A DNA stretch of 64,000 nt from Actinomycetota bacterium (GCA_037139095.1 JBAXHD010000008.1:16781-80780); one strand, 5' to 3'. Counted from the stretch's first letter, positions 14,364 to 61,007 are shown. The notes: generated by a model not told the origin, from the sequence alone. Program-made: numbers and translations.

Positions 14364-16328
14364 GTGCCATCTACGTTGACGCCCGAACAAGACTCTGCAG
14401 CTATCAGCCTCATTCGTGGCTTCGCCATGGATGCTCCCCTCTACGCCAAGAGCGGGCATCAGGGCACCGCAATGGCGCTGGCCCCTCTGGCTCATGTGCT
14501 GTACAGCCGTGTCATGCGCCACGATCCCGCCAATCCGTCGTGGCCCGATCGAGATCGGTTCATCCTCAGCAACGGCCATGCCAGCATCTTGCAGTACTCG
14601 ATGCTGTACCTCAGCGGCTATGGGCTCGAACTCGACGACATCAAGCAGTTCCGTCAGTGGCAATCGGCCACTCCAGGTCACCCAGAGGCGGGTCACACAG
14701 CTGGCGTCGAGGTCACAACCGGACCGCTCGGACAGGGCTTCGCCAACGCAGTTGGCATGGCTATCGCCGAGCGCTCGTTGGCCGATCGGTTTGGCTCCAA
14801 CGTTCAAGATCACCACACCTTCGTCATTGCCGGCGATGGCTGTTTCATGGAAGGCCTCAGCCACGAAGCTGCATCACTGGCGGGTCATCTCAAACTTGGT
14901 GGTCTCATCTGCGTTCACGACGACAACGGCATCACCATCGACGGAAACACCAACCTCGCGTATAGCGACGACGTTGCCATGCGCTTTCGGAGCTACGGCT
15001 GGCATGTCGAAAGCGTTGGCGAGATCGCCGACGATTGCGATGCGCTCGAAGCCGCACTGCGCCGGGCGATGGCGGTCACCGACCAGCCGAGCTTGATCAT
15101 CCTTCGCTCGCACATCGGCTACCCGTCACCCGATCTCACTGATACGCACGAGGCCCACGGCAACCCGTTCACGCTTGATCTCACCAATCGAACCAAAGAT
15201 GCGATGGGCATTCCTCAAGAGCCGTTCTGGGCGCCTACCGATCTGGTCGATGCGTACCGAGCCTCTGCTGCCCAGCGCGGACAAGCCGCCAGTGCTCAAT
15301 GGCAGCAACGCTTCGAAGCATCGGCGCTCAATCACGCCGAATGGGATGCTTGCTGGGCAGCCACTGGCCTCGCTGATTGGACCGATTCGCTGCCTACGTT
15401 TGCTCAGGGCGACAGCATCGCAACCCGCGTTGCGATCCAAAAGGTGTTCGACGCAACGCTTGCACAATTGCCAGGCCTGGTCGCCGGATCCGCCGACCTC
15501 ACCGGAAACACCGGTACCAAGCTGGCGGGTCAGGTTGCCCAATCGGCTGCTGCGCCGGGCGGACGTCAGGTGTATTACGGAATCCGCGAGCACGCGATGG
15601 CAGCCGTAATGGTCGGCATGTCGCTGCATGGCGGTGTGCTTCCCGTGGGCGGCACCTTCTTGGTTTTTGCCGACTACCTGCGCCCTTCTGTGCGCCTCGC
15701 AGCTCTCTCGAAGGCCAAGGTTGTGTTTGTGCTCACGCATGACTCGGTTGGCGTGGGCGAAGACGGACCCACCCATCAGCCGGTCGAGCAGCTTGCGTCG
15801 CTACGCATTATCCCTGACCTGCAGGTAATCCGCCCGGCCGACGCCAACGAGACCGCTCACGCATGGCGCGTTGCGGTGGAGCACGACGGCCCAACCGCCT
15901 TGGTGCTCAGCCGACAGAACCTGCCCGTGTGCACCGATGGCGCCGCAGTAGAGACTGGGGCGGCAACGCTCAGCGCAGCGGCCGATCCTCGGGTGGTGCT
16001 CGTGGCTACCGGCAGCGAGGTGCATCTCTGCACCGCTGCCGCCGAACAGCTCGCAGCGCAAGGCATCGGTGCCAACGTGGTGTCCATGCCATCGTGGGAT
16101 CGCTTTGAGCGCCAGTCGGCGGCATACCGTGCCACTGTGTTCCCCAAGGGAGTACCCGTGCTTTCCGTCGAGGCTGCAGTCACCTTTGGTTGGGCGCGCT
16201 ACGCCCACGACAGCATTGGCATCGATCGTTTTGGGGCAAGCGCGCCAGGCGCGCTGGTGCTCGACAAGCTCGGCATCAATATCGACAACATCGTTGCTCG
16301 GGCGACTGCGCTCGCGACGAACGCCTAG
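14364..16328 (+). CDS. tkt: Transketolase
   Basis: 654 aa with a GTG start. Contains SGHQGTAMALAPL, the GDGCFMEG thiamine-diphosphate motif and the THDSVGVGEDGPTHQPVE block. Confidence 0.95.
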   Translation: MPSTLTPEQDSAAISLIRGFAMDAPLYAKSGHQGTAMALAPLAHVLYSRVMRHDPANPSWPDRDRFILSNGHASILQYSMLYLSGYGLELDDIKQFRQWQSATPGHPEAGHTAGVEVTTGPLGQGFANAVGMAIAERSLADRFGSNVQDHHTFVIAGDGCFMEGLSHEAASLAGHLKLGGLICVHDDNGITIDGNTNLAYSDDVAMRFRSYGWHVESVGEIADDCDALEAALRRAMAVTDQPSLIILRSHIGYPSPDLTDTHEAHGNPFTLDLTNRTKDAMGIPQEPFWAPTDLVDAYRASAAQRGQAASAQWQQRFEASALNHAEWDACWAATGLADWTDSLPTFAQGDSIATRVAIQKVFDATLAQLPGLVAGSADLTGNTGTKLAGQVAQSAAAPGGRQVYYGIREHAMAAVMVGMSLHGGVLPVGGTFLVFADYLRPSVRLAALSKAKVVFVLTHDSVGVGEDGPTHQPVEQLASLRIIPDLQVIRPADANETAHAWRVAVEHDGPTALVLSRQNLPVCTDGAAVETGAATLSAAADPRVVLVATGSEVHLCTAAAEQLAAQGIGANVVSMPSWDRFERQSAAYRATVFPKGVPVLSVEAAVTFGWARYAHDSIGIDRFGASAPGALVLDKLGINIDNIVARATALATNA

Positions 16329-16337
16329 GAGGCATCT

Positions 16338-17453
16338 GTGGATCGGCTCGTACATCTCGCTCGCGACTTTGGTCAGAGCCCGTGGCTCGACAACCTGAAG
16401 CGCAGCTACATCACCTCAGGCCAGTTGCAGGGACTCGTCGATCGCGGTGTTCGCGGGCTCACCTCGAACCCAACCATCTTTCAAAAGGCCATTCAGGGCT
16501 CGCCCGATTACGACGAGCAATTCTCGGCGCTCGCCGCCGGCGCTCCCCATCCCATCATCGATGACTACTGGGCGATGGTCTTGCGCGATATCAACAGCGC
16601 GCTCGACATCTTTGAACCGGTCTATGCCGCAACGGCGGGTCTCGACGGATACGTAAGCGTCGAGGTCGATCCGGGTCTGGCCCACGACAGCGTTGGTACC
16701 GAAATCGCCGCACGCGAGCTCAGCGAGCGCGTGAATCGCCACAACCTGATGGTGAAAGTACCGGCCACACATGCTGGCTTGCCTGCTATCGAGCAGATGA
16801 TTGCCGAAGGACGCAGCATCAATGTCACGCTCATCTTCAGCCTCGAGCGCTATGCAGCGGTTGTCGAGGCCTACATCAGCGGCCTTGAGCGCCTCGCCGC
16901 TTCGCCAACGGCCGACCTCTCTTCGGTCGCCAGTGTCGCAAGTTTCTTCATCAGCCGTGTCGACACCGAGATCGATAAGCGGCTCGACGCCATGGGCTCT
17001 CCCGAAGCATTAGCGCTGCGCGGCAAGGCTGCTGTTGCCCAAGGCAAGCTCGCCTACCAGATGTTTCAGAAGGCGTTCAGCGGTCCGCGCTGGCAGGCGC
17101 TGGCCGATCGCGGAGCTCGTGTGCAGCGTCCGCTGTGGGCGAGTACCAGCACCAAGAATCCTGCGTACCCCGACACGTTGTATGTCGACGAACTCATTGG
17201 TCCGCACACGGTGAACACGTTGCCCGATGCCACGCTCGAGGCGTTCGCCGATCACGGCAACCTCGTTCGTCGCGTTGATGTCGATGTCGATCAAGCGGGG
17301 CAAGATTGGCAAGCTCTCGCCGCTGTCGGCATCGACCTCGATGCCATCGCCGAGCAACTCGAGACCGAAGGTGTCGCTTCATTTCAAGCCAGCTTTAACG
17401 AGTTACTCGAAGCGCTCGAGGTGAAAGCCGCCTCGTTGCGTCACAACGCGTGA
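16338..17453 (+). CDS. tal: Transaldolase (actinobacterial long type)
   Basis: 371 aa. AGGAGG lies upstream of GTG 16338. Contains SPWLDNL, TSNPTIF, the VKVPAT active-site Lys block and INVTLIFS. Confidence 0.95.
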   Translation: MDRLVHLARDFGQSPWLDNLKRSYITSGQLQGLVDRGVRGLTSNPTIFQKAIQGSPDYDEQFSALAAGAPHPIIDDYWAMVLRDINSALDIFEPVYAATAGLDGYVSVEVDPGLAHDSVGTEIAARELSERVNRHNLMVKVPATHAGLPAIEQMIAEGRSINVTLIFSLERYAAVVEAYISGLERLAASPTADLSSVASVASFFISRVDTEIDKRLDAMGSPEALALRGKAAVAQGKLAYQMFQKAFSGPRWQALADRGARVQRPLWASTSTKNPAYPDTLYVDELIGPHTVNTLPDATLEAFADHGNLVRRVDVDVDQAGQDWQALAAVGIDLDAIAEQLETEGVASFQASFNELLEALEVKAASLRHNA

Positions 17454-18478
17454 CCACACCCGAGCTGTCTCCCGAGGTTGCACTCGCAGTGCAGCATCTG
17501 CTCGATGTGCTTGGCCCCACCCACGACCGTCGCCTTGCCGAAGAGTTGCTCACGGCGTCTGCGGGCATGATCGCCGATCACCCGGCAACGCTCGATCTCA
17601 AGATTGCTGCCTCCGCAGTTGTCGAAATGCGCGATGCCTACGGCATGTTTGCTCCGTATCGCGGGCGCAAGAAGGTGACTATCTTTGGCTCGGCGCGCAC
17701 CAAGCAATCCGATCCGCTCTACGAGCAAGCGCGCAACGTCGCAGCCCAACTCGGTGACCACGGATGGATGGTGATCACTGGCGCAGGCCCCGGAATCATG
17801 CACGCCGCCATGCAGGGTGCAGGCCGCGAGATGAGCATCGGCGTTTCGATTCGCCTGCCATTTGAACAGCAGGCGAACCCGGTCATAGCGGGTGACCCCA
17901 AGTACGTGAGCATGAAGTACTTCTTCACGCGCAAGCTCATGTTGGTCAAAGAGAGCAGCGCGTTTGTGTGCTTGCCAGGCGGGTTCGGAACGCTCGACGA
18001 GATGTTCGAACTGCTCACGCTGACGCAAACAGGCAAGGGCGTGCCGGTGCCAATTGTCTTTCTCGAAACTGTTGGCGACAACTATTGGGAGCGAGTCGCC
18101 AATCTGATCAACGATCAGTTGGTCGCTCGAGGTTTTGTCGATCAGATCGACACCAATCTCTATCTCATCACCGACAGCACCGAGCTGGCAGCTCGCGAAA
18201 TCCGTCGCTTCTACGCCAACTACGACAGCATGCGTTATGTGGGCGATCTCTTGGTGCTGCGCATGAAGCAATCCCCCGACGACGAACAACTTGCGCTGCT
18301 TAACGAACGCTTCGGGCACCTGTGCACGAAAGGCGTCATCGCCCGAACCCCTGCCCTCCCGATCGAGGTGCGCGAGGGCGATAGTGTCGCGCTACATCGG
18401 GTGGCATTCACGTTTGCCAAGCACGGCTTTGGCGACTTGCACCAGATGATCGACACACTGAACTCATTCGTTTCTTAA
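17450..18478 (+). CDS. LOG-family (TIGR00730) nucleotide 5'-monophosphate nucleosidase-like protein with a C-terminal extension
   Basis: 342 aa. Contains the VTIFGSAR, ITGAGPGIMHA and PGGFGTLDE motifs. ATGA overlap with tal. Confidence 0.85.
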   Translation: MTTPELSPEVALAVQHLLDVLGPTHDRRLAEELLTASAGMIADHPATLDLKIAASAVVEMRDAYGMFAPYRGRKKVTIFGSARTKQSDPLYEQARNVAAQLGDHGWMVITGAGPGIMHAAMQGAGREMSIGVSIRLPFEQQANPVIAGDPKYVSMKYFFTRKLMLVKESSAFVCLPGGFGTLDEMFELLTLTQTGKGVPVPIVFLETVGDNYWERVANLINDQLVARGFVDQIDTNLYLITDSTELAAREIRRFYANYDSMRYVGDLLVLRMKQSPDDEQLALLNERFGHLCTKGVIARTPALPIEVREGDSVALHRVAFTFAKHGFGDLHQMIDTLNSFVS

Positions 18479-18493
18479 GCAGTAGGGGCCTCC

Positions 18494-19330
18494 ATGCAAC
18501 TCGACCAAATCTGGCAGTACCCGGTGAAGTCGATGCGAGGCTCCAACGTCACCCACGGAGCGCTTGCAACCAACGGTGTCGTTGGCGATCGGATGTGGGC
18601 GCTGCGCGACGACCAACGTGGAGCAATTGCCAGCGCCCGCCGAATCAAGTCGCTCAGCCGTCTCGAAGCATCGTTCGACAGCGATGGCAACGGTGTCTCC
18701 GTTCGCCTTCCCGATGGATCAACAGTGTGCAATACCGACGCCGATGCCAACGCTCGCCTCAGCGCAGAACTTGACCATCAGGTGTCGCTATGGGCGAAAG
18801 AACCGATTTCGAACCTCGATCATTATCGACGCGGCCGTCCCGACAGCGACGACATGATGGCCGAACTCCGCTCGATCTTCGGACGCCTCGAGGACGAACC
18901 GCTCCCCGACCTGTCGATCTTCCCGCCGGAGATGCTCGAGTTCGAGTATCCGCCGGGCAACTACTTCGATTGCTACCCGTTGATGATCATGTCCACGTCG
19001 GCGCTTGCCGCACTGCGCGATGCGCTTCCCAACTCAGCCATCGATGAGCGGCGCTTTCGGCCATCGTTGGTCATCGACACCGGCGACGCAGTTGGTCATC
19101 CCGAGTTCAAGTGGGTCGGGCGCCGCCTTGCCATCGGCGGTGCCGAGGTGCAGATCCTTTCGGCGTGCCCGCGCTGTGCCGCTGTTGCCAATGAGTTCGC
19201 TCCCGAGCTCCCACGGGACTCTGAGGTGCTGCGCCACGTGGTGCGCGACCTCGATCAAAACGTGGGCGTGTACGCAACAGTGACGCGCGCCGCGCCAATC
19301 ACGATCGGTGACTCAGTCGAGTTCGTGTGA
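18494..19330 (+). CDS. MOSC domain-containing protein (MOSC_N beta-barrel plus MOSC)
   Basis: 278 aa. Has the typical N-terminus IWQYPVKSMRG, FRPSLVID, and the conserved Cys in ILSACPRCA. Confidence 0.85.
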   Translation: MQLDQIWQYPVKSMRGSNVTHGALATNGVVGDRMWALRDDQRGAIASARRIKSLSRLEASFDSDGNGVSVRLPDGSTVCNTDADANARLSAELDHQVSLWAKEPISNLDHYRRGRPDSDDMMAELRSIFGRLEDEPLPDLSIFPPEMLEFEYPPGNYFDCYPLMIMSTSALAALRDALPNSAIDERRFRPSLVIDTGDAVGHPEFKWVGRRLAIGGAEVQILSACPRCAAVANEFAPELPRDSEVLRHVVRDLDQNVGVYATVTRAAPITIGDSVEFV

Positions 19331-41404: not shown

Positions 41405-41934
41405 CGTGAGCCTGCCGTTGCCTCACGCACACGCTGACGCAACGGCGCCATCGCGAGATGACATAGCGCCAAGGCCGCAGCGTCGGCAGCGTCGGCGGGT
41501 TTCGGAACGGCCGTGAGGCCAAGTCGGGCTTGCACCATCTTTTGTACCTGGGCTTTATCGGCGGCGCCCCAGCCGGCAACGGCGCCCTTCACTTGGTTCG
41601 GCGTGTATTGCACAACCTCGCAGCCACACAGCCACGCCTCGGCGAGGGCAAGCCCACTGGCTTGGGCGACGCTCATTGCGGTGCGTACGTTGTTCTGAAA
41701 GAACACTTGCTCAACGGCAACAACGTGCGGTCGAAACTCAAGCAGCAGCGCAGCAAACTCTTCGCGAAGCTCTCCCAAGCGCTTGGGCAGTGGATCGCCT
41801 GGAGCGGTCTTGATCACGCCCAGACTCAGTGCGATTGCCGCGCCGGGGCCACTGGCTTGTACGGCTGCGTATCCGCATCGGGTGAGACCCGGGTCTATCC
41901 CGAGCACAACAAGAGGCTCGTCGAGGGAGCGCAT
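41401..41934 (-). CDS. ruvC: Crossover junction endodeoxyribonuclease RuvC
   Basis: Start at Met48 (or Met45, 41943) of ORF 41401..42075. Contains VLGIDPGLTRCGY. ATGA overlap with ruvA. Confidence 0.9.
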   Translation of the reverse strand: MRSLDEPLVVLGIDPGLTRCGYAAVQASGPGAAIALSLGVIKTAPGDPLPKRLGELREEFAALLLEFRPHVVAVEQVFFQNNVRTAMSVAQASGLALAEAWLCGCEVVQYTPNQVKGAVAGWGAADKAQVQKMVQARLGLTAVPKPADAADAAALALCHLAMAPLRQRVREATAGSR

Positions 41935-42057
41935 CACGAACATAGGTTCGTATGGTACCAAACAGGTCTTGAGGCACCGCGGATGAGCCACGCTGAAGCG
42001 GGCGCTTCGCGGAGCGCAGTCCTCTTGAGTCGCCGATGTGTGTGTCATAGTCGGTGC

Positions 42058-44076
42058 ATGCGTCACTCTGTTCAAGCTCTGTGTATTACTGCCACGCTGC
42101 TCTTCAGCGCCTGTGCGAGCAGTAGCAACAGTTCGTCTACGTCGCTTTCTGCAGTGCCAGCGGCAAGCGGGCCCGCAGACAGTTTGGTGCCCACGGCTAT
42201 TGCAGATGCCGCACCGCTGCCGTGCGACCCCATCGATCCGAGCGCTTGCTTGCTTCCATGGCCTAACGACGCATTCACGAAAGCAGACCCCGCGTCTGGC
42301 ACCGGTCGGCGCCTCGCCATTGCCCCAAGCGCACCACCGTCAAACGTTGGCGACAAAGTCATCGATGTCACCGACCAGAATCGAAGCGACGGATTCTCGC
42401 CTGGCTCAGCGATGCTCGTGCGGGTGCCTCAACTTGATCTGGCGGCATCGGGAGTCGCCTCCAGCACCTTTATTGCAAAGTCGCTCGAAGCTGACGCCCC
42501 GATCGTGTTGCTCGATGCCACCACCAAGCAGCGCTGGCCGTACTGGGCAGAACTCGACGCCCATGCAGTGCACGACGATCAGCGGCTGCTGATGATCCAT
42601 CCTGCAAGTTCGCTTCTCGAAGGGCATCGCTATGTGGTCGCGCTCCAGCATCTGAAATCGGCCACTGGGCCGATCGCTTCGCCCAGCTCGTTCACCGATG
42701 CGCTCGCCAGTACAGCCACGCCCGATCGCGCAGCCCACCTTCATGGTGTCGTTGCTGAAGCGACTGCTGCTGGCGTTGACCCCGCAACGCTGTACATGGC
42801 GTGGGACTTCACGGTTGCAAGCGCACAAAGCTTGTCGGCGCGTTTGCTGCACATGCGCAGCGATGCCTACGCCTCGGTGGGCTCAACTGCACCGGTGTTC
42901 ACCGTTGACTCGAGCGTCGACGAGGGAGCCGTGCGCACGATTCGCGGCACGTATTTGATTCCGAACTACCTCACGGGCACTGGCGCACCCGGGTCTTCGT
43001 TCGAGCTCGGCTCCGATGGCTTACCCGCGCGCAACGTGGCCAATCCCGATTTCAGCGCGCCGTTCCTGTGCCTGGTGCCAGTGGCGCCATCAGCGCCTAC
43101 TCCTGTTGTGGTCTACGGCCACGGCTTGTTGGGTTCGCGCGAAGAGATCAACGGCCTCCGCGCTGTGGTCGAGCAGGGCTCGCTGTCATTGTGCGGCAGC
43201 GACTGGATCGGTATGTCGAGTGAGGACATCGGCAACCTGGCCGGAATCCTCGGCGATATGAGCAACTTCAAGCAACTGGCCGATCGCTTGCAGCAGGGGC
43301 TACTCAACATGCAATTCCTTGGACGTGCCATCAACGCCGCCGACGGATTCGCGTCGAATGCCAGCTTCCAAACAGCTACACACGCACCGCTGATTGCGCC
43401 CGGCAAGACAACGCTGCTCGGCAACAGCCAAGGCGGCATTCTTGGTGGAGCTGCTTCGGCGATCTCTACCGAGTGGACCAATGTGGTGCTTGGCGTGCCC
43501 GGCATTAACTACTCGCTGTTGCTGCCACGATCATCCGACTGGCCCGAATTCGAATCGGTCTTCAACGCTGCATACACCGGCGATATCGATCGAGTCATCG
43601 CGCTTCAACTCATCCAGCTGTTGTGGGATCGCGGCGAGAACAATGGATACGCGCAGCACCTCACCCAGGACCCCTATACAGGTATCTCAGCAAAGAAAGT
43701 TCTGATGATCGAAGCCTTTGGTGATCATCAGGTCTCAAACGTGTCCACCGAAGTGCTGGCCCGCACCATTCATGCCGGGGTCCACTCCCCTGCGCTGCGT
43801 CCATCGCGAAGCCCCGATGTGAATCCGTATTTCGGTATTGATGCAATCACCGACAAGAACGTCGACCGGTCGATCGTTGTGCAATGGGACTACGGCAATC
43901 CGGCGCCACCAACAGTGAATCTGCCTCCGACTGATCCAGCCTTTGGTGAGGACCCCCACGGCAAAGGATCGAGTGAAGCGCGAGTGATTCACTTGGCGCT
44001 TGGGTTCCTAACAACGGGCAAGATCTCGATCCCGTGCGACGGGCCGTGCGTGAGCGACAGCGTGGCGGGCGGCTAG
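42058..44076 (+). CDS. Secreted lipoprotein, alpha/beta-hydrolase fold (putative lipase/esterase)
   Basis: Real start at ATG 42058 inside the 848-aa ORF. Lipobox LLFSAC, oxyanion-like YGHGLLGS, nucleophile elbow GNSQGG and a candidate catalytic His in FGDHQV. 672 aa. Confidence 0.75.
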   Translation: MRHSVQALCITATLLFSACASSSNSSSTSLSAVPAASGPADSLVPTAIADAAPLPCDPIDPSACLLPWPNDAFTKADPASGTGRRLAIAPSAPPSNVGDKVIDVTDQNRSDGFSPGSAMLVRVPQLDLAASGVASSTFIAKSLEADAPIVLLDATTKQRWPYWAELDAHAVHDDQRLLMIHPASSLLEGHRYVVALQHLKSATGPIASPSSFTDALASTATPDRAAHLHGVVAEATAAGVDPATLYMAWDFTVASAQSLSARLLHMRSDAYASVGSTAPVFTVDSSVDEGAVRTIRGTYLIPNYLTGTGAPGSSFELGSDGLPARNVANPDFSAPFLCLVPVAPSAPTPVVVYGHGLLGSREEINGLRAVVEQGSLSLCGSDWIGMSSEDIGNLAGILGDMSNFKQLADRLQQGLLNMQFLGRAINAADGFASNASFQTATHAPLIAPGKTTLLGNSQGGILGGAASAISTEWTNVVLGVPGINYSLLLPRSSDWPEFESVFNAAYTGDIDRVIALQLIQLLWDRGENNGYAQHLTQDPYTGISAKKVLMIEAFGDHQVSNVSTEVLARTIHAGVHSPALRPSRSPDVNPYFGIDAITDKNVDRSIVVQWDYGNPAPPTVNLPPTDPAFGEDPHGKGSSEARVIHLALGFLTTGKISIPCDGPCVSDSVAGG

Positions 44077-54685: not shown

Positions 54686-56188
54686 CTACCCCACGGCCCA
54701 TGTGTTCACGGCGTATGCGCCGTTGGCGTTGACCTGCACCACTGCATCAGAAGTAACCACTGGCGTGCCCGAGGTGGTCGCGCTCTTGAGACGCAGCACG
54801 AGTTGAGTCACCACTTCAGACACTCCTACCTTGAACTTGGCTGGGCTGTCACCGGGAACCTCGATAGTTCGAGCCAAGACTCCACCGTCGAAGTTGATCG
54901 AATCCTTGACTCCTAGTCCGGCGCCAATCGAGATCAGAAAGCGGCCCTGTGGCACGTCGACATAACCGGGCACCGAGATGGTGGTGGCAGTGCCCTGGGT
55001 GAGATTGACCTCAACGATCGCCGAGTTATCAGGCACTGCAGGAACCAACGTAGAAGGCCGATACTTGTTGAGCGTTGCGGCGCCAAACGTGGTGGCGCCG
55101 GTGGGCGCCAGCGAATAGGGCACGTACAACACGCCCGACTGGTCGAGGTCTTGGATCGAGTTGCTCAGGTTCGAACTCGGGAGCAAGCCATTTACCGACA
55201 TGATGTTCACGGTTGCCGACGGCAAGTTGTTCGTGTCGGTAGAACTCACGTAGCGCTGGTTAAACACCAAGCTGATCGAGTCGGTCGCAGCGCCGGTGTA
55301 CGGCACGGAGTTCTTCACCACGAGGCGTCCGGTCATGCCGAACACAAAGGTTGCTCCGAGTCCGGTGATGTTATGCGTAGCTGGCGCGTTCACTGCGTAG
55401 AACGCAGCGAACTGGTCGGTGGTACAACCATCAACGCCACCGCCCCCGACGACAACATTTGCGTTGTCGGTAATGGTCACCGAGTTTTCGAAGTAATAGA
55501 TGCCTGAGGTGAAATAGACCGGTGTCGATCCAGAGATCACGATGGGGTCAACATAGGTGCCAGGGAAATACACCTTGCAGGCGTCGAACCCGTCGGGCAT
55601 GACGTAGGCAGTGGCCGAACGTGGACTCAGCGCATGCACCGGAAGGTTCTGCGACCATATGGTGTCAATCGTTCGGGTCAGGCTGATTGCGTTGCGCCAT
55701 GCTCGAGTATCGCTTTGCCCCGAACCCGGGTACACCGAGTGAACGTTGGCGGCCGATGGCGTATAGGCCGCCGGGAGCGGCACTCCAACTTGTAGCGAGG
55801 TGGCGCCGTACGGGCGCTTCGTTGCGTCTTCGGAATAGTTCACTGCCATCAGCGCACAGGTCGTTGCTACCGGTACCCGCAACGATGGGCTAGCGAGCGC
55901 TGGGTTGAGGCTCACTCCGGCTTTGTCTTGGTTGCACGCTTTGAAGAGCGCCACCGGGTCAGCAAGAGCAGTGCGCAGGCCACCCTTCACCGCTTCGAGT
56001 CGCTGCGCTTTGTTGTCCACGAGTCGACTCGCCCTGGTAACGGTCACCGCGTAGGTGAGCATTGGGGTAACGATCAATGTCGCCACGATGATGACCACCA
56101 ACGACAAGATCAGCGCAGACCCCTCGTCGCTGTTACCGCACTCACGCGCCAAGCGAAGTGCCTCGAGTCTGCGTCTGACCAGGTTCAT
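54686..56188 (-). CDS. Pilus-associated protein with a pilin-like leader but no Glu5 (500 aa)
   Basis: Start taken at ATG 56188, forming an ATGA overlap with the stop of the 910-aa gene. The longer ORF 54686..56563 would overlap that gene by 379 nt. The leader MNLVRRRLEALRLARECGNSDEG is followed by SALILSLVVIIVATLIVTPML. The remainder is Gly/Thr/Val/Asn-rich, beta-rich and has no TM. Confidence 0.7.
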   Translation of the reverse strand: MNLVRRRLEALRLARECGNSDEGSALILSLVVIIVATLIVTPMLTYAVTVTRASRLVDNKAQRLEAVKGGLRTALADPVALFKACNQDKAGVSLNPALASPSLRVPVATTCALMAVNYSEDATKRPYGATSLQVGVPLPAAYTPSAANVHSVYPGSGQSDTRAWRNAISLTRTIDTIWSQNLPVHALSPRSATAYVMPDGFDACKVYFPGTYVDPIVISGSTPVYFTSGIYYFENSVTITDNANVVVGGGGVDGCTTDQFAAFYAVNAPATHNITGLGATFVFGMTGRLVVKNSVPYTGAATDSISLVFNQRYVSSTDTNNLPSATVNIMSVNGLLPSSNLSNSIQDLDQSGVLYVPYSLAPTGATTFGAATLNKYRPSTLVPAVPDNSAIVEVNLTQGTATTISVPGYVDVPQGRFLISIGAGLGVKDSINFDGGVLARTIEVPGDSPAKFKVGVSEVVTQLVLRLKSATTSGTPVVTSDAVVQVNANGAYAVNTWAVG

Positions 56189-58917
56189 AGGGTCACCGTC
56201 TGCACGCACGACACGGCCTCGTTGGCCGCCACCTTGACTCGAATACCCGAAAAGATCGGACTCGCAGTGGGCACGAGTGTGAACGTTCGATTCGTGACAC
56301 CTGCTTTGCAGCTCCATGTCCCCGATTTGTAACTCGACAAGCCAGAAAGGTTCTGCGGTTGGATCTCGACGGTTTGGTAGGTGCCGTCGCTGATGTTGAG
56401 GTCGAAGGTGCCACTCGAGAACTGCTTCGTCGTAGTGATCACCGTCATGTCGGATACCAACGGCTTGCCGGCCGAGTCGGTGAGCGCCGTCTTTTGGTAG
56501 GTGAACGGATCTGCGGCCGACGTACTGCCCACCTTGGTTTGCAAGGTCAATGTGCCGCCGCACTGCGAGAGCGCGATGGTCTGTAGCGCAAGGCCGAAGT
56601 TGGTGTAGTCGGGCGAGATATACATGTTGGCGGTGAGCGCATTGGTGTACTTGCCATTGACCAGTGTTGCGGGCACGCCGGTATCTGAGTTGGCCACCAG
56701 CCGCGACAAGATCTGGGCGCCAGTGACCGTAGATGTCACTGGCGAGTCGTATGCCGTGTACGGCAGGCTGTACTGCTTGGCCGATCTGGTCCAGCTGGAA
56801 TCGGTGCTGCTGTAACCAGTACCTGTGGTGTCTACGGGATCCGAGAGCGAGTACGGCGACGTATAGCTCTTACCGGTCCAGCCATCGGTGGAGTCGGTGT
56901 CGGGCGCTCCAGGATTCATCACGGAATAGATGCTCTGGTTGGTAACGGTGGGTGAAGCGTTTGTGGTCCACGATGTTGTTGGGTTGGCGATGGCTGGGTC
57001 TGTCAAGTTGACCGACCGGGCAAATGAATACGGCGCACTGAATGCGGCGCGTGATGAGCTTGACAGTGACGTCGATGATGTCGCCGACGTGTTGATCTCC
57101 CAATACGTGTAGGGCGATGTGTACAGGCGCCCGGCAGACCAACCGTCGCTGCCGTCGCTCACCGAATTCGCTGCGATGTCTTGGGCAGTGAACAAGGTCA
57201 GGTTGGTCGAACCCGACGAAGGCGCCGTCCATGTGGTGGCCATGTCTTGCGATGCAATTGCGCTGGCGCTCAGCGACGTCTTCGACAAGCGGAAGGGCGA
57301 TGTAAAACGGAGGCGTCGTTGGCCATTTGAGGTGCCGAGTGTGCTATTCGAAGTCGCTGACGAATCGTCGACCCACACAGGCGAACTCGTGCTGCCCGTG
57401 TTCTTCTCCATGTGGTACCAACGCGTCATCGTGGTGTCGGCGTGGTATCCCTTTTCGATGTGGTAGTAGCGCGAGTATGCGAGGTGATAGCTGTGTGTGT
57501 AGTTGTAGTGGTAGCCAGGGATGCTTGAGATCCACGTTTGGTTACCGCTGACGCCCGGACCAACGCCCACTCCGATGAAGCGTGTGCTGTCGCGGAATGC
57601 GGCCGCAATGAGGTTCGCTCGGTCGAAGCCTTGCTGCTGGTAGTTGCCGTTCATTGTCGTTGAGTAGCCAGGCTGAGCGAGAGGCGGTTCTGCGGGGATC
57701 GAGCTCGAAGAGTTGTTCAAACGCGAGTTGGTCGGAACACCGTCTGTAAAGAACACCACCATCCCGGGGAGGTCTTGCGCCACCGTTCCGTCTGCGTTGT
57801 AGAACGTGCGGAACATCGCATCTTCCCAGTTGGTATATCCAGCTGGGTATGTCATGTTCGTTACTTCGTTCAACAACGCATTGGACTCAGTGCTGTTGAG
57901 CATGTTGTACGACATCGTCCATGTGGGCGATGTTGCGCCGACCGTGCTTGCGACGGTGTCGAAGGGAACAAGCTTCAATCGCACCGGTGTACCGACAAAC
58001 ATGGTCACGAATTGGCCAACAGCTGTTTTGATCTTGGCGAAGTCGGTAGATCCGATTGAGCCCGATCGGTCGATGATCAACGTGATCGAGCCGCCGCACA
58101 GCGAGCGAGCGGCAATCAACGACGGCGCTCCTTGCATGCTGGTCGAGTCAATCAAAGTGCGGTTCGTGCCACCCGCGCTGAGGCTGATCTGATTCGTCCC
58201 GCCGCCGGCGCCTGCCGACTTGCCGCCGCCGTTCACGGTAACGACAACTCGCTGTGCGTTCTTGACGGCAACGGCTGATGCCGAGCCCGCGATGGTGGTG
58301 ACTGTTGGATCGATTGCTAGGGGATCCGGCGGGGTGCTGACTTTGATAATCCAGTCGGGCACGGTGACACCTGCAGTGAACACACCGTCTGGTGGAGCAT
58401 CGAGATTGTGCAATACAACACTGGCTCGACAGGTGACCGCGCCCTCGGTCTGATCGCACTGCACTCGAATGAGTTGGTACTCGCTACCGACCAGTACATA
58501 GCGGTATGACACCTGTGTCAGGCGTGTGACCGACTGTCCGCTGGCGTTGGCCACGAGAGTGCTCCACGAGAGCATCATCGCGTTGGAGCCACCGACATCG
58601 GCCCCAGGTGGGCAGGCTCCGAAACAGGAATTGATACCCGGAGAGGTGTCGACGTTCTGACCCGCTGACGCAAGATCGCCTGGGATCCACAGACCCGCCC
58701 CGTTCTCGGCGCGGGCGTTGTTGAGTCGGCCGTTGCCCGTGGACTGCTGATTCATAATGACCACAACCGCTCCGGAAAGCGCTGTGACGAGCACACCTGT
58801 GAGAGCGATCGAGATGAGCAACTCCACCAGCGTCATTCCCTCGTCGCGGCGGGGATCTCGATTGGTGAAGTGTTTGCGGAATTGGCGCAAGAGACGGACG
58901 AATGGGTGTCTACACAT
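56185..58917 (-). CDS. Giant modular type IV pilin-like protein with an internal vWA (MIDAS) domain
   Basis: 910 aa. The leader ...DPRRDEG is followed by MTLVELLISIALTGVLV, a prepilin cleavage/methylation motif with Glu5. The vWA domain covers aa ~275-455 (DNA 57553-58095) with DRSGS (D283/S285/S287), T362 and D392 (FFTDGVPT). It is followed by a Ser/Thr/Tyr/Trp-rich region and a C-terminal beta-rich domain. Confidence 0.8.
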   Translation of the reverse strand: MCRHPFVRLLRQFRKHFTNRDPRRDEGMTLVELLISIALTGVLVTALSGAVVVIMNQQSTGNGRLNNARAENGAGLWIPGDLASAGQNVDTSPGINSCFGACPPGADVGGSNAMMLSWSTLVANASGQSVTRLTQVSYRYVLVGSEYQLIRVQCDQTEGAVTCRASVVLHNLDAPPDGVFTAGVTVPDWIIKVSTPPDPLAIDPTVTTIAGSASAVAVKNAQRVVVTVNGGGKSAGAGGGTNQISLSAGGTNRTLIDSTSMQGAPSLIAARSLCGGSITLIIDRSGSIGSTDFAKIKTAVGQFVTMFVGTPVRLKLVPFDTVASTVGATSPTWTMSYNMLNSTESNALLNEVTNMTYPAGYTNWEDAMFRTFYNADGTVAQDLPGMVVFFTDGVPTNSRLNNSSSSIPAEPPLAQPGYSTTMNGNYQQQGFDRANLIAAAFRDSTRFIGVGVGPGVSGNQTWISSIPGYHYNYTHSYHLAYSRYYHIEKGYHADTTMTRWYHMEKNTGSTSSPVWVDDSSATSNSTLGTSNGQRRLRFTSPFRLSKTSLSASAIASQDMATTWTAPSSGSTNLTLFTAQDIAANSVSDGSDGWSAGRLYTSPYTYWEINTSATSSTSLSSSSRAAFSAPYSFARSVNLTDPAIANPTTSWTTNASPTVTNQSIYSVMNPGAPDTDSTDGWTGKSYTSPYSLSDPVDTTGTGYSSTDSSWTRSAKQYSLPYTAYDSPVTSTVTGAQILSRLVANSDTGVPATLVNGKYTNALTANMYISPDYTNFGLALQTIALSQCGGTLTLQTKVGSTSAADPFTYQKTALTDSAGKPLVSDMTVITTTKQFSSGTFDLNISDGTYQTVEIQPQNLSGLSSYKSGTWSCKAGVTNRTFTLVPTASPIFSGIRVKVAANEAVSCVQTVTL

Positions 58918-59419
58918 CGCTCTTCACCACCTGCAGAGATTTTTTGATTTTTCCGTCGGGACTTGTGACCGTGATCGTCACGAGTTGAACTGCAAGGTCG
59001 GCAGGCGCAGATTGGGTTGTGAGACAAGCAAGGTCGGCCCATTGGCCTTCGGTGCTTGCAGTTGCGCCAGGAACAAAGTGTTGCTGAAGAACTGACGTTG
59101 TAGTGGCATCCCACCCGTTGGTCTGTGCCGCAGCCTGCGCATACAACGTGTAATCGCAACTCTTTGGCGCACGGTTCACGCGGTCGGCTGCATTCTGGAG
59201 CACGGTCTCAACCGCTGACATGTTGGTGTTCAATCGGCCAGCTGTGATCGTGGACATCACCGCGTTCAAGGTCGGAACCATGATGATCGCCATGATCGTG
59301 ATGGTCATCACGATCTCAACCAACGAGAATCCAGCGTCAGCGCTCTCGGTGTCGCAGCGCACAGCCTCATCGCGGGCGTACATGAGCCAGGAGCGTGTGC
59401 CGCTCTTGTCATGCTTCAT
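58910..59419 (-). CDS. Small type IV pilin/pseudopilin-like protein
   Basis: The maximal ORF is 58910..59446 with a GTG start. ATG 59419 has the only weak SD-like sequence (AGGACGGG), and ATG 59383 is also possible. The leader ends ...ESADAG and is followed by FSLVEIVMTITIMAIIMVP with Glu5. The ~140-aa mature part has 2 Cys. Its stop overlaps the next gene's start by 8 nt. Confidence 0.75.
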   Translation of the reverse strand: MKHDKSGTRSWLMYARDEAVRCDTESADAGFSLVEIVMTITIMAIIMVPTLNAVMSTITAGRLNTNMSAVETVLQNAADRVNRAPKSCDYTLYAQAAAQTNGWDATTTSVLQQHFVPGATASTEGQWADLACLTTQSAPADLAVQLVTITVTSPDGKIKKSLQVVKSDV

Positions 59420-59551
59420 ACGACGCCCGTCCTGTTCGCACGCCACAGCCGATCTGTGGCACCACTAATTCATCGGTATCTGCGTTGCAGACTTGAGGCA
59501 TTTCAGCATCGCGCTGGACTTTGAAGGCCCCATTCGGCAATCCTGCATCCA

Positions 59552-60457
59552 ATGCTCGAGCGTGTTTGCCCCCTATGTCGAGGCTCCTTGCGCGTCTCTG
59601 AGCGCGTCTATGCGTGCGTCACCTGCACTGAGAGCTATTCCCGGGTTGACAACATCGATCTGTTCTTGCCTGCGGCGCGGGTGGCGCACTTCGAGCAATT
59701 CCTGAACGATTACACGACAGTGCGACTCGCTGAGGGCCGCGCCAGCGATGACCCCGAATACTTCAGACGGTTGCCCGAGACCGCACCTGGAGCACCGTTG
59801 GAGTGGCAGTGGAACATGCGAAGTCGGTCGTGGCGCACCGTGCGGTCGCGCGTGTTTCGTCCTCGGACGCAGTCGCTCGTTGTCGTCGATGTTGGAGCCG
59901 GAGTCGGCTGGCTGTCGAACCGACTCACTGAGCTCGGCCACGAGGCTCTGGCAGTCGACCTCACGATTGACCCTCACGATGGTCTTGGCGCTGCTCGCCA
60001 CTATCAACACAAGTTCTCGTGCTCTCAGGCCGAGATGGACGCCTTGCCCTTCCCAGATGCCAGTGCAGATGTCGTGATCTACAACGCCAGCCTGCATTAC
60101 TCATGCGATTACGCCGTCACGCTCGCCGAAGCGCTGCGAGTGCTCAAGTCCACAGGCCGAATCGTGGTCATGGACTCCCCCATCTACCGACAACGCTCCG
60201 CCGGCGAGGCGATGATTGCCGAGCGGCACGCCGATTTCGAGCAGCGGTTCGGATCGCGATCCGACTCCGTGCCGTCGGTTGGATATCTCACGCCACACAT
60301 GCTGCACGATCTGGCCCTGAGCCTCGGTCTCCGTTGGCGCAGGCATCACACCTGGTACGGCTGGCAGTGGGCGTGGAAGCCGTGGCGAGCCCGCCTACGC
60401 GGCAAGCGTCAGCCAAGCCGATTCGTGGTGCTCGTCGCCAAGCGTGTGGGTCCGTAA
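59552..60457 (+). CDS. Class I SAM-dependent methyltransferase with an N-terminal Zn-ribbon
   Basis: 301 aa. CPLC...CVTC ribbon, SAM motif I VVDVGAGVGWLS and motif post-I ALAVDL. Confidence 0.85.
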   Translation: MLERVCPLCRGSLRVSERVYACVTCTESYSRVDNIDLFLPAARVAHFEQFLNDYTTVRLAEGRASDDPEYFRRLPETAPGAPLEWQWNMRSRSWRTVRSRVFRPRTQSLVVVDVGAGVGWLSNRLTELGHEALAVDLTIDPHDGLGAARHYQHKFSCSQAEMDALPFPDASADVVIYNASLHYSCDYAVTLAEALRVLKSTGRIVVMDSPIYRQRSAGEAMIAERHADFEQRFGSRSDSVPSVGYLTPHMLHDLALSLGLRWRRHHTWYGWQWAWKPWRARLRGKRQPSRFVVLVAKRVGP

Positions 60458-60746: not shown

Positions 60747-61007
60747 CTAGCGAAAGAGCTGCACGATGCGGTACACGAAGTACAACACCAGCAGTACCAT
60801 CAGCAGCTTGAAGTGCCACGGGGCCTTCATGTCTTCGTCGGCGTCGTCTCCGGCAGCCAATTTGCGAAGGTCGAGATTCTTAGCCGTGATTGGCGTCTTC
60901 GGTACCTGCGCCTCAAGGCTTCGCCCGCATGTTGGACAGTTGCCATCTTCGGTCATAGCCGATGGCGCGAAGTACTTGGCGCAGTCTTCACACCAGGGCA
61001 TGCGCAC
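60747..61007 (-). CDS. Small Zn-ribbon protein with a C-terminal TM anchor
   Basis: 86 aa. CEDC...CPTC ribbon, an acidic linker, then WHFKLLMVLLVLYFVYRIV. Lies 37 nt downstream of der on the same strand. Confidence 0.5.
   Translation of the reverse strand: MRMPWCEDCAKYFAPSAMTEDGNCPTCGRSLEAQVPKTPITAKNLDLRKLAAGDDADEDMKAPWHFKLLMVLLVLYFVYRIVQLFR

Follow-up and report, generated by a model that had tools for sequence, protein, structure and literature searches.

What function can three pilin-like genes have at a site where no pilus machinery is encoded? This question is raised by a stretch of 64,000 nucleotides from an Actinomycetota bacterium (GCA_037139095.1 JBAXHD010000008.1:16781-80780), hereafter called the window, which contains three consecutive minus-strand genes that we designated A, B, and C. 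An earlier note, made from the sequence alone, had regarded them as an undescribed orphan system resembling a pilus-tip or minor-pilin complex, and had offered a Tad-type TadE/TadF/TadG set as the alternative. Our analysis indicates that A-B-C is very likely the minor-pilin operon, coding for priming and tip-adhesin subunits, of the type IVa pilus (T4aP) of Acidimicrobiia, located here away from the assembly genes and next to der. The genes were assigned from the list of open reading frames (ORFs) as follows; coordinates are those of the window unless the locus of a relative is named, and Glu5 denotes glutamate at position +5 of the predicted mature protein.

58910-59419, minus strand: gene A, small predicted minor pilin, 169 amino acid residues from the ATG at 59419
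56185-58917, minus strand: gene B, modular predicted minor pilin of 910 residues, with N_methyl and VWA matches
54686-56188, minus strand: gene C, pilin-like protein of 500 residues without Glu5

The ORF list and the sequence bore out the translational coupling of the three genes. A and B overlap by 8 nucleotides, the ATG of B at 58917 meeting the TAG of A within ATGTGTAG, and B and C overlap as ATGA, with the ATG of C at 56188 lying on the TGA of B; the ATGA coupling of B and C was kept in 49 loci. The span previously given for the operon, 54686-59446, was right as to the genes, but its upper end is that of the maximal ORF of A, which starts with GTG (58910-59446, minus strand). The real start of A is probably the ATG at 59419 (MKHDKS...), which is favored because the N-termini of orthologues with 83-85% identity in two close relatives (L006 and L008) agree with it. 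A scan for promoters and terminators around the operon gave results no better than those for shuffled sequence.

A six-frame regular-expression search for prepilin-like motifs over the whole 64 kb matched the three N-termini of A, B, and C only, and the pattern is therefore not due to chance. Judged from their sequences, class III signal peptides are present in A and B. Both proteins passed the Pfam N_methyl model (PF07963; 22.6 bits for A and 25.0 bits for B, with a cut-off of 21.2 bits) and TIGR02532 (20.9 and 17.7 bits, respectively, with a cut-off of 16.3 bits), and Glu5 was found in all 30 A and all 31 B sequences, in line with the two such peptides recognized earlier. The third protein had been described as lacking Glu5 in the manner of K-type tip pilins, and the residue was indeed found in 0/40 members of the C family. 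Glu5 in pilins is thought to neutralize the charged N-terminus of the neighboring filament subunit, and its absence characterizes both the K-type capping minor pilins and Streptococcus sanguinis PilA (PMC9934059). The leader end R(-4) D(-3) x G(-1) was common to the A, B, and C families, and G(-1) was kept in every sequence that includes the leader; a hydrophobic helix comes after it in all three proteins. In relatives, the major pilin beside the module shares this D-x-G cleavage context (KKDRG/FTLVELL; the slash marks the predicted cleavage site), and PilD (A24_N_bact and Peptidase_A24) also adjoins the module there. The D-x-G leader common to A-B-C and the major pilin argues for one common prepilin peptidase.

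Pfam searches of the larger ORFs over 1-64 kb, with a few smaller ORFs left unscanned, yielded no type IV pilus (T4P), type II secretion system (T2SS), or Tad machinery. Together with the motif scan of the 64 kb, this agreed with the earlier statement that neither machinery nor a major pilin lies nearby. In the rest of the window, the larger ORFs gave matches to housekeeping genes only (mpa/arc, transketolase, ruvAB, queA, tgt, yajC-secDF, relA, hisS, aspS, htpX, lemA, der, and others), and pilus machinery hidden within the window was thus ruled out for the larger ORFs.

Homologues of B and C were numerous, and their named sources were Acidimicrobiia-type metagenome-assembled genomes (MAGs; Ilumatobacteraceae, Acidimicrobiaceae, and Acidimicrobiales). 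The earlier note had proposed a check of conservation, and the module proved to be kept across Acidimicrobiia, with hits in 177 relatives when the C profile was searched against one genome per species. The best 80 of these 177 hits, representing 79 distinct loci, were compared, and their context was surveyed with a Walker-A regular expression and tblastn. Nearly all of the 79 loci came from Acidimicrobiia-type or unclassified actinobacterial MAGs; a few carried a Bifidobacterium title and were probably mislabelled.

The module lay inside a canonical T4aP locus in 25 of the 79 loci, and in 17 of the 40 loci that had enough flank to judge. In locus L031, the order was PUA-methyltransferase, major pilin, A, B, C, DUF429, PilT, PilD, PilC, and PilB. 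Pfam identified PilT by T2SSE (383 residues), PilD by A24_N_bact and Peptidase_A24, PilC by T2SSF, and PilB by MshEN and T2SSE, and the major pilin of 111 residues matched N_methyl with 39 bits. Locus L062 had the order PilB-PilC-A-B-C, followed by a T2SSE ATPase confirmed by Pfam. Since the module is embedded in the T4aP loci of relatives, it does not represent a new kind of system, and the proposal of an undescribed orphan system was not sustained. The companion view, in which the three proteins resemble a complex of minor pilins or of a pilus tip, was strengthened by the pilin signatures, by this linkage to T4aP genes, and by the von Willebrand factor A (vWA) domain of B with its metal ion-dependent adhesion site (MIDAS).

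The same loci bear on the Tad alternative, according to which the three proteins would be a Tad (type IVc) pseudopilin set of TadE, TadF, and a vWA-bearing TadG. A-B-C resembles TadE/F/G in being a small pseudopilin set with one member possibly bearing a vWA domain, and vWA domains can occur in TadG-like proteins. It differs in N-terminal motif family and in machinery: no TadE or Tad-family model of Pfam or NCBIfam was matched at E<=1, the N_methyl or GFxxxE-type motif being present instead, and the genes linked to the module in relatives encode PilB (MshEN), a single PilC, PilD (A24_N_bact), PilT, and a 111-residue T4a-type major pilin, not TadA/B/C/Z or Flp. It also speaks for a Tad set that the only type IV filaments studied experimentally in Actinobacteria are Tad pili (PMC6916266). 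We rejected the Tad reading as extremely improbable.

In 23 of the 40 informative loci, no machinery was present in the fetched flank (up to 10 kb on each side). Where the flank reached, the detached loci usually had the synteny DUF512-der-...-A-B-C-amidohydrolases-SRAP, as in the window. In a rough neighbor-joining tree of C, the embedded loci fell into two clades (25 and 5 loci), apart from the detached ones. A search with a PilB profile found P0328, whose longest contig of 5,259,373 bp is equal in length to OZ257157.1, an Ilumatobacteraceae chromosome that carries a detached module (L015) outside the der context. The locus of a protein identical to P0328 (L085, on a 260-kb contig; there was one similar place besides) contained PilB, PilC, PilD, PilT, DUF429, three tandem major pilins, and the PUA-methyltransferase, that is, the order of L031 without A-B-C. 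For at least one genome, it follows that the pilus locus has lost its minor-pilin set to another site and has no other. Another machinery locus (L086) likewise lacked A-B-C. The earlier note would have taken the set as an ordinary relocated minor-pilin set if homologous modules were always embedded in canonical loci; embedding was frequent (25/79), and a detached relative had a T4aP locus without A-B-C, but embedding was not universal. An embedded and a detached module were not found in one MAG among the 79 loci from the best 80 of 177 hits. A minor-pilin operon of its own is normal for well-studied T4aP systems, such as fimU-pilVWXY1E in Pseudomonas, and diderms commonly have it apart from pilBCD.

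For the der-linked clade, an explanation to be weighed here is that A-B-C works as a stand-alone system independent of pilus machinery, either as a short membrane-anchored pseudopilus stub or as a surface adhesin, with a prepilin peptidase at most. It would suit the stable inheritance of the detached synteny in the window clade and beyond, the 23 informative loci without machinery in their flanks, and the motif scan, which found no major pilin within the window. However, the embedded and detached modules are clear homologues whose leader motif is the same as that of the major pilin, and the T4aP locus of the genome carrying a detached module encodes major pilins but no minor ones. That locus would then want minor pilins, which are essential for assembly in the studied systems, and the invariance of Glu5 in A and B concerns a residue tied to filament packing (PMC9934059). 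We regard the stand-alone explanation as highly unlikely.

Other features of the module and the T4aP loci in relatives were as follows. Tandem extra module genes were present in some genomes (L002/L061 4257-16921; also L014, L016, L076, and L080). In L002, on a 1.84-Mb contig, the interval between der and SRAP contained an extra 739-residue B-like gene, the A-B-C trio, a second trio (192, 595, and 800 residues), and a 117-residue N_methyl gene that is major-pilin-like. At least two MAGs had two separate modules (EUL_283 and MFD09779.bin.1.277). DUF429 (PF04250) always adjoined PilT (L024 11651-12367, L085 16702-17421, L086 14992-15711, and L087 15029-15748) and sat between C and PilT in embedded loci; we know of no reported pilus role of this family. 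A conserved gene of about 400-445 residues stood beside pilB on the promoter-proximal side in all four loci compared (L031 17966-19276, L085 8622-9956, L086 8758-9960, and L087 8613-9950). It had no Pfam domain and gave only faint coiled-coil-type matches, and it may encode a lineage-specific assembly component. PilT of L085 (15527-16676) and PilC of L086 (11599-12994) were split in two frames, as pseudogenes or through assembly frameshifts. PilM, PilN, and PilO were not recognized in the four T4aP loci L031, L085, L086, and L087.

In protein B, the following parts were delimited.

58402-58836, minus strand: pilin module of B, residues 28-172, with the cleavage motif D-E-G/MTLVELL
57538-58092, minus strand: vWA domain of B, about residues 276-460 (Pfam VWA over residues 278-404, 31.9 bits, with a cut-off of 23.8 bits)
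56728-57330, minus strand: Ser/Thr-rich variable repeat region of B, about residues 530-730, in which the motif [YF]x[STAL]P[YF] occurs five times
56188-56562, minus strand: conserved C-terminal beta domain of B, residues 786-909 (alignment; strands at 789-909 in the model)

The AlphaFold2 (AF2) model of B (predicted local distance difference test score, pLDDT, of 76) consisted of the pilin module, a low-confidence Gly-rich linker, the vWA domain, a beta-rich segment, the Ser/Thr-rich repeats, and the C-terminal beta domain. The pilin module was modelled with an alpha1 helix at residues 30-84 (about 55 residues) and a four-stranded sheet with strands within 111-172, and Cys98, Cys102, Cys154, and Cys163 were invariant in the alignment of homologues. 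The MIDAS residues (D283-x-S285-x-S287, T362, and D392) were invariant in 31 homologues. A profile search of B against PDB found the integrin alpha-X I domain (2.5e-5), and Foldseek with the model of B retrieved vWA adhesins, integrin I domains, and S. sanguinis PilB (7b7p_A, E 1.2e-5, probability 1.0). The repeat motifs start at residues 538, 599, 626, 685, and 716, often with DGW just before them, and Ser and Thr make up 34% of residues 456-760. The homologues of B range from 615 to 1224 residues and differ widely in repeat copy number and length; this part may serve as a stalk of variable length or as a site of glycosylation. The C-terminal beta domain was modelled with a pLDDT of about 74-91, mostly above 83. 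The insert made up of the vWA domain and the repeats lies between Cys274 and Cys786, which were invariant, as were Cys870 and Cys904. In L087, a distant trio (15759-18494) adjoined PilB-PilC-PilD-PilT-DUF429, and its B-like protein was a plain 208-residue pilin without a vWA domain, which suggests that a J-like minor pilin was the base to which the vWA domain, the repeats, and the C-terminal module were added by grafting. The C-like protein of this trio (483 residues) again lacked Glu5.

Protein A has a leader of about 30 residues that ends in D-A-G and is followed by FSLVEIV..., so that the predicted mature protein has about 139 residues. The core of its signal peptide was located as follows.

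59309-59332, minus strand: class III signal-peptide core of A, G/FSLVEIV, with Gly at -1 and Glu at +5 (regular expression; R-D-x-G in 30 sequences)

The profile of the A family matched type IV pilins of solved structure in their N-terminal helices, best Geopilin (E 7.6e-5) and also MshA, PilA, and PilE1. Models of I-type minor pilins were weakly matched by individual members of the family (PilV by 17/30, ComGE by 7, GspI by 5, and XpsI by 4).

The leader of protein C ends in D-E-G/SALILSLVV.... In the C family, D(-3) and G(-1) were present in every member with a leader (38 of the 40 aligned), and all 40 had L, F, M, I, or V at position +5. The AF2 model (pLDDT 84; predicted template modelling score 0.74) showed a helix at residues 22-76 (about 55 residues) followed by beta-rich domains. 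The family is large: among 1.84 billion proteins, the C profile matched the representatives of 699 clusters (50% identity) at E<=1e-3, of which 213 also matched at E<=1e-30. A discoidin or FN3 module is present in addition in many homologues, inserted ahead of the C-terminal domain (two matched stretches). The N-terminus of C weakly matched the HpsC pseudopilin (NCBIfam, E 5e-4), Pfam matched none of the 40 family members, and the C profile matched no PDB sequence. C is without a known relative in sequence or fold.

The closest analogues of A-B-C are PilABC of S. sanguinis and the GspI/J/K-type tip complex. The former belongs to a monoderm T4aP in which a trio of minor pilins, namely PilA, PilB, and PilC, is encoded together and forms a tip complex essential for assembly (PMC8179133, PMC9934059). 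As in A-B-C, one subunit lacks Glu5, one pilin is fused to a vWA domain with MIDAS, and one is a large modular pilin. The two sets differ in that B has the extra variable repeats and the C-terminal beta domain, the head of C matches no known fold and carries no lectin signature, sequence homology is confined to the N-terminal helix and the vWA domain, and the window operon is detached from the machinery. The GspI-J-K/PilV-W-X complex (HIJK) shares with A-B-C the gene order of a small, a larger, and a bulky Glu5-less subunit, the last gene encoding the Glu5-less one, and members of the A family weakly matched the PilV, GspI, XpsI, and ComGE models. No H-type fourth subunit was found beside A-B-C, and the adhesin is built into pilin B here, whereas in diderms it is carried by the non-pilin PilY1.

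PilY1 and PilC tip adhesins are similar to B in displaying a vWA domain at the pilus tip, a location that is predicted for B, and Pseudomonas aeruginosa PilY1 has an N-terminal vWA domain (cited in PMC8179133). PilY1 is, however, a non-pilin with a C-terminal beta-propeller, whereas B has a class III signal peptide. Assignment of B or C as a PilY1/PilC adhesin was rejected; Pfam found no PilY1-type propeller domain in either protein. Thermus thermophilus ComZ offers a further parallel, being a large minor pilin whose pilin N-terminus bears an additional beta-rich module (PMC8179133), and the weak Foldseek neighbors of C were beta-helix proteins, but no significant sequence or structure match was obtained.

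From these comparisons, we propose the following working scheme. Translational coupling would yield A, B, and C in fixed proportion, and each would enter the membrane through its hydrophobic N-terminal helix. The PilD that processes the major pilin would also cut A, B, and C after R-D-x-G. The three proteins would then form a small complex on the PilC platform that starts filament growth and finishes at the distal tip. In this complex, A, as a small I-type pilin, may nucleate assembly and join the complex to the major pilin. B may act as a metal-dependent tip adhesin composed of a pilin, a MIDAS-containing vWA domain, a Ser/Thr-rich repeat stalk, and the C-terminal beta domain. C, with its bulky beta-rich head and without Glu5, may be the capping, first-in, and topmost subunit in the role of GspK/PilX. 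The filament would be extended by PilB and retracted by PilT, and the A-B-C complex would serve attachment, and possibly twitching or DNA uptake. Cleavage, tip location, and subunit order are predicted here from the HIJK and PilABC complexes (PMC9934059).

The same minor-pilin set could instead belong to a filament used mainly for DNA uptake (competence) or for protein or polysaccharide export (T2SS, Hps-like) rather than for adhesion. DNA-uptake pili work by PilT-driven retraction, and weak N-terminal matches to the ComGE, ComGF, GspH, GspI, and HpsC pseudopilins point in this direction, as does the Thermus ComZ pilin, whose beta-solenoid module has been implicated in DNA binding (PMC8179133). 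On the other hand, B with its invariant MIDAS-containing vWA domain, and many C homologues with discoidin or FN3 modules, possess typical ligand- and surface-binding modules, and comEC, comEA, a secretin, and T2SS-specific genes were not seen in the linked loci, although no systematic search for them was made. A filament devoted mainly to uptake or export is unlikely in our estimation.

The assignment of A-B-C as the minor-pilin operon of a T4aP has several observations weighing against it. The pilin models that the earlier note had suggested for all three proteins were passed by A and B, and the VWA model was passed by B, but none was matched by C above cut-off. A Foldseek search of PDB with the model of C yielded no significant match (best E=3, probability 0.06). 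In this search, GspK (3ci0_K) and XcpX (5vtm_X) had E values of about 5-6 and probabilities of 0.06-0.07. K-type models of Pfam and NCBIfam were likewise unmatched, and membership of C in the GspK/PilX family was rejected. The K-like role of C is thus proposed from the missing Glu5, its size and bulk, and the gene order. In S. sanguinis, moreover, the Glu5-less subunit is the small PilA (PMC9934059), whereas here it is the large C. The close relatives of the window (L005-L012; 56-90% identity, with L006 and L008 at 87-90%) were all detached and beside der, and the stable detachment of this clade is also compatible with an independent role of the module. That the organism of the window possesses a T4aP is suggested by its relatives; in the 64-kb window itself, the motif scan and the scans of the larger ORFs found none of the machinery, no major pilin, and no prepilin peptidase. 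Two further arrangements can be envisaged: in the der-linked clade, A-B-C might be a self-sufficient "tip without a shaft" or short pseudopilus in which C has a new beta-helix-like cap fold, or C might be a new K-type cap family on a normal pilus. We consider such arrangements improbable, and retain the minor-pilin assignment.

If the minor-pilin assignment is correct, many Acidimicrobiia, which are abundant in freshwater, soil, and marine habitats, would carry a retractile T4aP together with a lineage-specific three-subunit minor-pilin set. The host is a freshwater or soil actinobacterium of this class, in which T4aP have had no experimental study. In the literature on T4P in Acidimicrobiia and Ilumatobacter, nothing was found on A-B-C minor pilins, and the only mention of T4P was a KEGG-level one of pilABCEMOTY1 in the sister order UBA5794 (PMC12008989). 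A-B-C does not reveal a new kind of machine; it is a lineage-specific set of a known kind, with a C protein without known relatives. The set would be a third independent example, beside HIJK and PilABC, of a "small nucleator plus bulky cap plus adhesin" design. The vWA domain of B, the head of C, and the discoidin and FN3 inserts are targets for studying how mostly uncultured planktonic bacteria attach to particles, polymers, and cells.

The flanks of the operon in the window were as described before, with two amidohydrolases on one side and a methyltransferase and tRNA-Pro on the other. The former side comprised two Amidohydro_2 genes, SRAP, a luciferase-like gene, and GT4, and the latter comprised Methyltransf_11, tRNA-Pro(GGG), a small ORF, der, and a DUF512/radical-SAM gene. 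Further ORFs of the window were the following.

59552-60457, plus strand: Methyltransf_11 protein with an N-terminal CxxC...CxxC segment, divergent from gene A
41530-44076, plus strand: 848-residue ORF with coding-type GC content at third codon positions (0.68), between ruvA and an AhpC/TSA gene
60747-61007, minus strand: 86-residue ORF directly downstream of der, zinc-ribbon-like by its two CxxC pairs and hydrophobic over a stretch at the C-terminus

The Methyltransf_11 gene was found by tblastn only in the closest relatives, L006 and L008 (81-84% identity), and because of this restriction it is probably without a functional tie to the pilin module. The 848-residue ORF had no Pfam match at E<=1e-3. 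The 86-residue ORF also had no Pfam match, and an unannotated gene of 84-85 residues occupies the same position after der in two relatives (L002 and L003).

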